DNA from: Candidatus Woesearchaeota archaeon
GTDB taxonomy: Archaea; Nanobdellota; Nanobdellia; SCGC-AAA011-G17; JACPIM01
Assembly (NCBI GenBank): GCA_964513145.1
Contig: CAZELK010000001.1
Span: 96,001-160,000, forward strand
Direction of reading: 5' to 3'
DNA length: 64,000 nt
In this document: one piece after another, positions 28,808 to 30,982 of the stretch
How positions within the stretch are numbered: position 1 is the stretch's first letter
Layout of the letters: each line of letters opens with the position of its first letter
Made by a program: the position numbers and the translations under genes
Notes under the pieces: generated by a model
Told to the model about the DNA's origin: nothing
Databases searched by the model: none
Seen by the model: only the letters and a program-made list of their open reading frames with translations

Positions 28808-30982
28808 ATGAAGATATTGACAATTCATGCTGATTATCTTAAGTTTAAGCCTTTAAAACAGGCAATAAAGGAAGCTGAAGAAGCCAGCAAAAAAGAGACA
28901 GATGTCAAGGAATGCCTAGTAGTATTTACAGCAGTGGAACAAGGAGATGAAAAAGACCCAAAAATTTTAGTTGATAATTTATTTAAAGAAGTAGACAATA
29001 TTGCAAAACAAGTTAAAACAAAAAGTATTGTACTTTATCCTTATGCACATTTAAGCTCTAAATTAGCATCGCCGAAATTTGCATTGCAAGTTTTAAAAGA
29101 TGCAGAAGAAAAATTAAAAAAATCTTTTAAAGTCACAAGAGCTCCTTTTGGGCATTACAAATCTTTTGAGATTTCATGCAAAGGCCACCCATTGTCGGAA
29201 TTATCAAGGGAAATACTGGCTGATTCCAACGGGACTGAAAAAATTGACAAGCCTTTAGAGATCAATATAAAAGAATTAAACAAACTAGACAAATTAAGAA
29301 ATACTTTTAATATTTTATTGGCGAAGTCAATTTTATCTTTATTTCCAAATACAAAACCAGCTTTATCTTTTTTAGACGAAGACAAGTTTTATTATGATTT
29401 TGAAAAGCAACACCCGTTTACACCTGATGATTTAAAAAAAATAGAAAACAAAATGCAGGAATTATTGAATAGGGGAATAAAATTAAAGAAGATCACTAAA
29501 AATCCGGAACTTTTGTTTAAAGAAAATAAATACAAATTAGAAATCCTGAAAGATGTTAAAAAAATTAAATTTTATGAACTAGACAATTTTAATGATGTAA
29601 TTATAGGTGGTGCTTTGGAAGAGATTCCGAAAAACTCATCTTTTAAATTATTAAATTCGTCAGGAGTCTATTGGAAAGGTTCTTCTTTAAACAAGCAACT
29701 ACAAAGGGTTTATGGAATAGCTTTTGAAAATAAACAAGACTTAGAAAAATATCTTAAAAATTTAGAAGAACTACAAAAAAGAGACCATAGAAAACTGGGC
29801 GAGCAATTAGGATTATATTTTTTCCATGAATATTCGCCTGGTGCACCAATATTTTTACCAAAAGGAGCTTTAATTTATAATGAATTAATTAATTTATTAA
29901 GGGAGGAATATAAAAAGAGAGGATATCAGGAAGTTATAACTCCGTTACTGTATGAAAAGAGTTTATGGGAAACTTCGGGTCATTGGGAACATTATAAGGA
30001 AAATATGTTTTTAATGGAAAGCGAAAAGAGAATATTTAGTCTTAAACCAATGAATTGCCCATCTCATTGCTTAATTTTCAAGCATAACTTAATCAGCTAT
30101 AAAGACCTCCCTTTAAGAATTGCTGATTTTGCGCCTTTGCATAGAAATGAATTATCAGGAACTTTGAGCGGATTAACAAGGGTAAGAAAATTTTCCCAGG
30201 ACGACGCCCACATATTTGTCTCAGAAAATTTATTAGAAAAAGAAATTGAAAATGTCCTTGATTTTGAAAAATTTGTTTATAATAAAATTTTTAATTTAGA
30301 TTATTATATGAGACTGGGGACAAGACCTGATAATTTTATGGGTGATAAGCACTTATGGGACAAAGCAGAAAAATTTCTGGAGAAAATATTGAAGAATAAA
30401 AAAATAAATTACAAGATTGTTGAAAAAGAGGGGGCATTTTATGGACCAAAAATAGACATGCTTGTAAAGGATGTCCTTGGAAGGGAATGGCAATTAGCTA
30501 CAATACAATTGGATTTTCAGATTCCCTTAAGATTTGGTTTAACATACGAAGGAAGTGACGGCAATAAACATCATCCAATAATGATTCATAGGGCTGTTTT
30601 TGGATCTATGGAAAGATTTTTTGCTTTAATGGTAGAAAATTTTGCAGGAAAATTTCCTTTATGGTTATCCCCGGTTCAAGCATCAATAATAACAGTTACT
30701 GACAGAAATGTTGAATTTGCAAAACAAATTGAAGAGAAATTGAAAGAATTTAATATAAGGGCAGAGTTAAATGATGCACAAGAAACTTTAGGAAAAAAAG
30801 TTTTGGAAGCTACAAAGCAAAAAATTCCTTATGTTATTACCATAGGAGACAAGGAAGTTGAAAGCAAGACTTTAGCAGTAAGAAACAGGGATGGCAAAGT
30901 TAAATTTAATGTAAGAGTTGATGAATTTTTAAAATTGTTAAATGAAGAAATAAAAACAAGAAGCTTAAGTTCTAAATTATAA
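28808..30982 (+). CDS. thrS: Threonine--tRNA ligase, hybrid architecture
   Basis: Archaeal editing domain (LYPYAHLS, GHPLSELSR) + degenerate bacterial N2 + bacterial core (RDHRKLG, PMNCP, QDDAH, GAFYGPK, IHRA). Confidence 0.96.
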   Translation: MKILTIHADYLKFKPLKQAIKEAEEASKKETDVKECLVVFTAVEQGDEKDPKILVDNLFKEVDNIAKQVKTKSIVLYPYAHLSSKLASPKFALQVLKDAEEKLKKSFKVTRAPFGHYKSFEISCKGHPLSELSREILADSNGTEKIDKPLEINIKELNKLDKLRNTFNILLAKSILSLFPNTKPALSFLDEDKFYYDFEKQHPFTPDDLKKIENKMQELLNRGIKLKKITKNPELLFKENKYKLEILKDVKKIKFYELDNFNDVIIGGALEEIPKNSSFKLLNSSGVYWKGSSLNKQLQRVYGIAFENKQDLEKYLKNLEELQKRDHRKLGEQLGLYFFHEYSPGAPIFLPKGALIYNELINLLREEYKKRGYQEVITPLLYEKSLWETSGHWEHYKENMFLMESEKRIFSLKPMNCPSHCLIFKHNLISYKDLPLRIADFAPLHRNELSGTLSGLTRVRKFSQDDAHIFVSENLLEKEIENVLDFEKFVYNKIFNLDYYMRLGTRPDNFMGDKHLWDKAEKFLEKILKNKKINYKIVEKEGAFYGPKIDMLVKDVLGREWQLATIQLDFQIPLRFGLTYEGSDGNKHHPIMIHRAVFGSMERFFALMVENFAGKFPLWLSPVQASIITVTDRNVEFAKQIEEKLKEFNIRAELNDAQETLGKKVLEATKQKIPYVITIGDKEVESKTLAVRNRDGKVKFNVRVDEFLKLLNEEIKTRSLSSKL

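Follow-up and report, generated by a model that had tools for sequence, protein, structure and literature searches.

The thrS gene at positions 28808-30982 on the forward strand of the window, the 64,000-nucleotide stretch of contig CAZELK010000001.1 analyzed here, encodes a threonyl-tRNA synthetase (ThrRS) in which, with high probability, a live archaeal editing domain (ED) stands in cis with a dead N2 domain on an E. coli-type core, the product of one editing solution taking over from another. ThrRS is a textbook example of an enzyme family with two unrelated proofreading domains for Ser-tRNA(Thr). The gene is one open frame of 724 amino acids, and its product is the housekeeping ThrRS of a Woesearchaeota-like archaeon (GTDB Nanoarchaeota/Nanobdellota). 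In its sampled relatives, the N2 editing residues are lost wherever the ED is fused to an enzyme that keeps N2 and retained wherever it is not, and the catalytic domain appears to have been exchanged by recombination within the gene.

Domain architecture

The frame is divided as follows.

28808..29215, forward strand: archaeal DTD-like ED of the N-terminal domain (NTD) type, residues 1-136, PF08915
29216..29278, forward strand: flexible linker joining ED and N2-like domain, residues 137-157, low confidence in the AlphaFold2 (AF2) model
29279..29725, forward strand: N2-like domain with a predicted dead active site, residues 158-306, by homology to E. coli N2
29726..29779, forward strand: linker helix between the N2-like and catalytic domains, residues 307-324, with the putative 5' recombination junction at its end
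29780..30640, forward strand: class II catalytic domain of the common (E. coli-like) type, residues 325-611, PF00587 and TIGR00418
30641..30982, forward strand: anticodon-binding domain and stop codon, residues 612-724, PF03129

Residues 1-136 match the Pfam family PF08915 (tRNA-Thr_ED) along the whole profile, positions 1-137 of 137, with an E-value of 1.7e-52 and 177.6 bits (cut-off 30.2). With phmmer, residues 1-139 align with the NTD structures from Methanocaldococcus jannaschii (4rrf), Pyrococcus abyssi (1y2q), and Aeropyrum pernix (4rr6) at E-values from 1e-38 to 1e-26. Further downstream the protein follows E. coli ThrRS: residues 152-721 are colinear with residues 60-638 of 1qf6 (E 1.7e-138), residues 152-306 match 1tje, the N1+N2 fragment of the E. 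coli enzyme (E 8e-16), and the N2 region including the linker aligns with 1nyq (E 7.5e-33). Since the alignment with 1qf6 begins at residue 60 and the PF08915 match precedes it, the ED occupies the TGS/N1 position of the E. coli enzyme. No Pfam match to TGS (PF02824) was found in the 724-residue protein, while TGS-bearing relatives in the class do match.

The core is of the common type. It scores 677.7 bits with the NCBIfam model of E. coli-type thrS, TIGR00418 (cut-off 383.65; residues 169-714, profile positions 6-564), whereas the archaeal-type model NF003068 gives 414.3 bits, below its cut-off of 484, and covers residues 299-717 only. The Pfam matches to PF00587 (residues 403-612) and PF03129 (residues 624-713, E 6.4e-21) lie within this part of the protein. 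The zinc ligands C417, H468, and H594 (E. coli C334, H385, and H511) are present and are invariant in an alignment of 79 homologues of the same architecture.

An AF2 model of all 724 residues has a mean predicted local distance difference test score (pLDDT) of 90.7, with values of 86-97 for both the ED and the N2-like domain. The linker between them, residues 137-157, has a pLDDT of about 54-63 and no secondary structure; its length and sequence vary among homologues, and in the genome G132 it contains a charged insertion of about 32 residues. A helix is modeled at residues 309-324. The N2-like domain and core can be superimposed on the E. coli ThrRS-tRNA complex (1qf6_A) to a root-mean-square deviation (rmsd) of 3.0 over 574 columns, and the core alone can be superimposed on E. 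coli catalytic-domain structures to an rmsd of 1.3-2.0.

The two editing sites

In the N2-like domain, the residues that carry out editing in E. coli have been replaced. The phmmer and MAFFT alignments agree that E. coli I-I-R-H73-S-C-A-H77-L-L corresponds to K-L-R-N-T-F-N-I-L-L here, and D180-M-C182-R-G-P-H186 to D-V-I-I-G-G-A, giving the changes H73N, H77I, C182I, and H186A in the His/His/Cys/His tetrad. Pocket residues are replaced as well (G95S, P96F, G101K); K156, D180, G184, and the FYYD motif are retained. Editing by E. coli N2 requires H73/H77 and C182 (PMC3592468; PMC12003907). No match to PF07973 (tRNA_SAD) was obtained at E-values up to 1, while relatives with an intact N2 do match this family. 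The active site of the N2-like domain is predicted to be dead.

The ED presents a different picture. In the NTD of P. abyssi, the residues within 6 Å of the scissile bond are Pro80, Phe81, Ala82, His83, Tyr120, Lys121, and Glu134 (PMC4491819), and their equivalents here are P78, Y79 (Phe to Tyr), A80, H81, Y117, K118, and E131. Six of these seven are invariant in the 79-homologue alignment, with A80 conserved in 90% or more of the sequences. Invariant positions in the same alignment number 26 in the ED versus 2 (Y288 and W289) in the N2-like region. The ED active site is intact, and the ED is the predicted site of Ser-tRNA(Thr) hydrolysis.

Nevertheless, purifying selection acts on the dead N2, which is not freely decaying. 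Rough dN/dS values from the closest pairs, which alone are usable with dS at about 1 or saturated in most pairs, are about 0.11-0.16 for the N2-like domain, 0.09-0.10 for the ED, and 0.08-0.15 for the anticodon-binding domain.

The initial annotation of this gene had recognized the N-terminal archaeal DTD-like ED, a bacterial-type N2 without its editing residues, and a bacterial-type catalytic core with zinc ligands, and all three identifications hold. The motifs that it quoted are all present, with the correction that H77 is replaced by Ile and not by Asn. Its placement of the ED in front of N2 gives the right order, but the ED was not simply added, as the TGS/N1 position is taken and TGS is absent.

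The host genome (977,603 bp in 18 contigs, 98.8% complete) contains thrS in single copy, and a whole-genome search revealed no second ThrRS. Its only PF08915 domain is the one fused within thrS, PF07973 occurs in AlaRS only, with no other N2/AlaX-type domain, and there is one free-standing YbaK-like gene. Neither DTD (PF02580) nor DTD2 (PF04414) was found in this genome. Both tRNA-Thr(CGU) and tRNA-Thr(UGU) have U73, the discriminator that the archaeal ED reads (PMC8762117).

ThrRS forms in the class

The census that the initial annotation had proposed was carried out on 301 genomes, a sample of the phylum that falls entirely in one class; G242 and G243 are counted, with their sequences outside the analysis. 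A ThrRS match was obtained in 295 of the 301 genomes and an ED in 82. The combination of ED, N2-like domain, and core is found in 25 genomes and in more than 100 independent database clusters (NCBI, ENA, JGI, Logan). A total of 120 loci were fetched and then sorted into architecture classes:

Class A: ED, N2-like domain, and common-type core; 711-754 aa; n = 25, including the query
Class Y: ED, YbaK-like PF04073 domain, N2-like domain, and core; 907-932 aa; n = 3
Class D: ED and common-type core without N2; 546-584 aa; n = 20
Class R: canonical archaeal ThrRS; 615-641 aa; n = 13
Class B: N2 and core, without an N-terminal domain; 561-590 aa; n = 28
Class C: TGS, N2, and core; 629-669 aa; n = 25
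Class F: free-standing ED; n = 7
Class E: protein of ED and anticodon-binding domain, alongside a B-type thrS; 376 aa; n = 1

The state of N2 follows the presence of the ED exactly. In all 53 sampled enzymes without an ED in cis (28 of class B and 25 of class C), the six E. coli editing residues read HHKDCH, and in all 28 sampled ED-fused enzymes that keep N2 (classes A and Y), the tetrad is lost. There are 42 N2 columns with 90% conservation or more in classes B and C; only 11 of them persist in 80% or more of the A and Y sequences, and these lie mainly in the C-terminal strand and the linker adjoining the core. Free-standing EDs in trans occur together with an intact N2 (G088, G156, G282), so that N2 inactivation goes with cis fusion.

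Fused enzymes differ in how far N2 has been remodeled. In a large subclade, positions of the former active site have taken on new residues that are themselves conserved, namely, K156Q in 100%, H186F in 91%, and Y104V in 87% of its members, together with a VPLYKEPF-like motif; the small clade of the query (the host genome G000 with G142, G097, and G060) is less remodeled. The dead domain persists across deep divergence (about 25-35% identity), and no frameshifts are seen. As the D-type enzymes show, the N2-like domain is dispensable. A remnant of N2 was sought in the linkers of these ED-plus-core enzymes and none was recognizable, so their origin by N2 deletion gains no proof.

In the N2 tree, an unconstrained search splits the dead N2 domains into two or three groups with long stems (0.8-1.1 substitutions per site); the approximately unbiased (AU) test does not reject a single clade for all of them (p 0.78), a result that long-branch attraction could favor. 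The ED tree, built from 150 columns, has few supported branches, and hybrid EDs are intermingled in it with EDs from canonical archaeal ThrRS, so that no ED donor can be picked out.

Several further arrangements of the ED were encountered. The Y-type ThrRS (L068:39-2786:+ in G096, L067:109-2829:- in G102, and L069 in G160; also P0077 and P0095) has three editing-type folds in one chain: the ED (residues 1-137), a YbaK/ProX-type PF04073 domain (about residues 193-312, E 4e-17), and a dead N2, followed by the common-type core. The ED and YbaK-like module is likewise found attached to an archaeal-type (R) core in proteins of 797-798 residues and on a common-type core without N2 in one of 765 residues (L180:2501-4894:+, labeled Bilamarchaeaceae/Micrarchaeota; L199:2501-4891:+; L192:1743-4037:+, Woesearchaeota UBA10204), and its presence on both indicates that the module travels between core types. 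Free-standing EDs form a separate clade with very long branches. One of them, in G088, is a divergent gene for 135 residues (L070:2871-3275:+) located 290 bp downstream of a thrS for TGS, intact N2, and core (L070:662-2581:+). G282 has a split pair, in which a thrS for N2 and core with N2 intact (L102:958-2640:+) is accompanied, on another contig, by the 376-residue protein of ED and anticodon-binding domain (L073:91-1218:+). A complementary distribution of DTD2 and the ED was considered and rejected: across the 301 genomes, DTD2 is no rarer where the ED is present (30 of 82 ED-bearing versus 93 of 219 ED-less genomes).

A mosaic catalytic domain

The catalytic domain of the query does not share the history of its flanks, which adds a point that the initial annotation had not made. 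In comparison with its genus mates G142 and G097, the ED and N2-like domain (residues 1-320) are 62-92% identical, and the anticodon-binding domain (residues ~601-724) is 72-78% identical to those of G142, G097, and G060. The catalytic domain (residues ~321-600), in contrast, is 31-53% identical to those of G142 and G097. Its identity to the catalytic domain of the B-type enzyme in G089, which belongs to another family of the same order, is 78-87%; the anticodon-binding domain of that enzyme is 45-55% identical to that of the query. The switch points lie in conserved blocks, KRDHRKLG on the 5' side and AGKFPLWLSPVQ on the 3' side, and over residues ~311-340, identity to the genus mates drops while that to G089 climbs.

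The same pattern separates the genus mates from one another. G142 and G097 are 43% identical in the catalytic cassette and 82-86% identical in the flanks, and the three members of the genus, G000, G142, and G097, share ED, N2-like, and anticodon-binding domains (74-86%) around three catalytic domains of about 43% mutual identity. The loci behind the cassette comparison are window:29780-30640 with L010, L011, and L078. Query-type mosaics also occur in P0003, P0007, and P0008, which come from other assemblies, with catalytic domains that are 83-86% identical.

In a tree of the catalytic and anticodon-binding domains, the query groups with G089 and G171 (Shimodaira-Hasegawa-like approximate likelihood-ratio test, SH-aLRT, 99), and a single clade for all ED-bearing enzymes on the core tree is rejected (difference in log-likelihood 570, AU p 2e-73). 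The differing identities and the rejected single core clade imply that the modules of thrS have separate histories. Relative to the genus mates, the catalytic domain is a swapped cassette, apparently acquired by intragenic recombination between divergent alleles; a mosaic of this kind fits the homeoallele recombination idea that Andam and Gogarten put forward for ThrRS-C and ThrRS-R (PMC3191353).

Separate phylogenies of the three parts, which the initial annotation had also suggested, gave a mixed answer: the core tree is discordant, the N2 tree allows one dead clade, and the ED tree is poorly supported. Its term "bacterial" is correct for the type of N2 and core, but most ThrRS of this archaeal class are enzymes of that type with N2 intact. 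Of its reading as an editing-domain replacement captured in place, the replacement is supported, whereas the transience was overstated: selection acts on the dead N2, and the architecture is of long standing and found throughout the lineage.

Proposed explanation and alternatives

In the replacement that we propose, the E. coli-type core would charge tRNA(Thr), at times yielding Ser-tRNA(Thr) as all ThrRS do, and the N-terminal DTD-like ED, held on a flexible tether of about 20 residues, would remove the serine. By homology, the ED would act as a dimer, with catalysis via the 2'-OH of A76. The N2-like domain, folded and selected but with its tetrad and much of its pocket gone, would most likely serve as a spacer or a platform for the acceptor stem. 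As to the order of events, the TGS domain of an N2-type enzyme would have given way to an ED from an archaeal-type ThrRS of the same class, and N2 editing, then redundant, would have been lost after the ED's arrival. Modules would later have recombined, a double crossover at two conserved motifs bringing in the catalytic domain of an N2-type lineage.

Several points weigh against this explanation. The perfect association between the ED and a dead N2 may rest on one to three events and not on 28 independent trials. The clade of the query keeps K156, D180, G184, and FYYD, so that N2 may have residual or altered activity. An ED of the DTD fold must dimerize across subunits, which a tether of 20 residues may not allow in a dimer of the E. 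coli type with N2 in between. Finally, the dN/dS values that speak for selection on N2 are as rough as noted above.

The persistence of N2 could also mean that the domain was kept for a new specific function, be it another substrate, a ligand or partner site, or an obligatory hand-over of the tRNA. Purifying selection (omega ~0.11-0.16), the derived residues of the large subclade at former active-site positions (K156Q, H186F, Y104V, and the VPLYKEPF-like motif), and survival through deep divergence without frameshifts would all fit. Some 20 sampled genomes, however, have an ED and core without N2, so that the domain is dispensable; only two of its positions are invariant across 79 homologues, and the hydrophobic replacements resemble the filling of a pocket more than a new polar site. 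We regard such a function as rather unlikely. Still less probable is a second editing site in which N2 clears Ser-tRNA(Thr) by other residues. The query clade does retain K156, D180, and G184 within a preserved fold, but the non-equivalent N, I, I, and A stand in place of H73, H77, C182, and H186, the pocket residues G95, P96, and G101 are lost, PF07973 is not matched, and the stem branches carry far higher substitution rates (0.8-1.1 per site), which leaves two working sites very improbable.

Alternatively, the ED might act mainly as a D-aminoacyl-tRNA deacylase or on some other substrate, Ser-tRNA(Thr) editing having been lost in these reduced genomes. This would suit its DTD fold and a host genome that lacks both DTD and DTD2. 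It is nonetheless improbable in view of the serine-pocket residues, which are those found without variation in genuine ThrRS EDs, of the distribution of DTD2, which does not complement that of the ED, and of the loss of N2 residues, which follows the ED exactly, as functional substitution predicts. That the genome is a metagenome-assembled genome (MAG) raises the question of whether the hybrid or its mosaic core is an artefact of assembly or binning. We consider the likelihood of this negligible: mosaics of the query type turn up again in P0003, P0007, and P0008, the frame is open across both junctions on a 217-kb contig, and alleles of about 43% identity have no assembly k-mers in common. A misassembly joining two genes, which the initial annotation had named as the event that would undo its reading, is excluded by the occurrence of the same architecture in the 25 genomes and more than 100 clusters.

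The replacement of N2 editing by the ED remains the explanation that we favor, and it could be extended. In a broader reading, which we consider doubtful, thrS in these DPANN archaea is a modular gene whose N-terminal editing, catalytic, and anticodon-binding modules pass repeatedly from lineage to lineage through exchange at conserved motif junctions, the dead N2 is a selected adaptor, the switch to the ED was adaptive, and natural products drive the turnover of cassettes. As an adaptor, the dead N2 may pass the acceptor end on to the ED dimer on its tether and would be no relic. More speculatively, the oxidation-sensitive Cys182 mechanism would have been traded for an oxidation-resistant editor of the DTD fold, the resistance of this fold relative to the Cys182-dependent N2 being a suggestion from PMC12003907. 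Turnover of the catalytic cassette could be driven by natural products that target ThrRS.

Genomic surroundings

Upstream of thrS, a divergent gene at window:28398-28772 (-), 36 bp away, encodes a 124-residue Fic/Doc-family protein, identified by a PF02661 match (E 2.6e-5) and the motif HPFTDANKR. On the other side, an open reading frame of 143 residues (window:30984-31415, +) begins 2 nt past the thrS stop codon. It matches no Pfam family, has no paralogue in the genome, and has no homologue adjoining thrS in the fetched relatives; a role as a conserved partner of thrS was rejected on the grounds of the missing Pfam match and neighbor homologues. ARAGORN finds 8 tRNA genes in the host genome and 15 with introns allowed.

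Close homologues are labeled Candidatus Woesearchaeota or Nanoarchaeota among the matches listed; labels of "uncultured Methanosarcinales" on several matches were treated as unreliable. G060, of the same family as the host, is a groundwater Woesearchaeota MAG. In public records, such proteins are named simply "threonine--tRNA ligase".

Comparison with known systems

With the canonical archaeal enzyme (ThrRS-R of P. abyssi and M. jannaschii; NTD structures 1Y2Q and 4RRF), the protein described here shares a DTD-like ED in cis, the same active-site residues, and tRNA(Thr) with U73. It differs in its common-type core (678 bits with TIGR00418, the archaeal model staying below its cut-off) and in the N2 homologue of about 150 residues between ED and core; even the class's own ThrRS-R is only 25-30% identical to it in the core. 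With E. coli ThrRS (1QF6/1TJE; TGS(N1), N2, and core), in turn, it shares N2, linker helix, catalytic domain, and anticodon-binding domain, colinear from residue 60 and superposable, but it has an archaeal ED for TGS and has lost the HxxxH/CxGxH tetrad and the pocket. A degenerate editing domain kept as a fold after loss of its catalytic residues is familiar from Mycoplasma LeuRS and PheRS, where editing was lost outright and mistranslation went up. The difference here is the presence of a non-homologous editor in the same polypeptide.

The split system of Sulfolobus and Aeropyrum, in which ThrRS-cat is paired with a free-standing ThrRS-ed (Korencic et al. 2004, as related in PMC3592468), likewise combines a common-type charging enzyme that lacks editing of its own with an archaeal ED as the editor; in the query, charging enzyme and editor form one chain that still includes a dead N2. 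A. pernix ThrRS-1 (3A31) aligns with the query from residue 343 only and is without N2. Within the class, the split pair of G282 resembles the crenarchaeal arrangement, but its N2 is still intact. A fusion of tRNA-Thr-ED to bacterial SepRS (Mukai et al., PMC8762117) is similar in that the ED is a mobile N-terminal graft on a class II synthetase, joined by a short linker; the host enzyme and presumed substrate are different, and there is no displaced resident editing domain.

A 2025 survey puts N2 in about 30% of archaeal genomes and the NTD type in the remainder, treating the two as alternatives (PMC12003907), and in searches of open-access papers, we found no description of a ThrRS carrying both. 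Here, both appear in one polypeptide, one seemingly alive and the other dead, and the class also holds the flanking forms: TGS, N2, and core; N2 and core; ED, dead N2, and core; ED and core; and split pairs. With forms from before and after present in relatives, this looks like a natural swap of proofreading solutions. The exchange of catalytic cassettes among close relatives is an unusually clean case of intragenic recombination of homeoalleles in an essential gene. These natural proteins could be used to test the displacement of an editing domain, the use made of the displaced domain, and differences in oxidant sensitivity between the two solutions.

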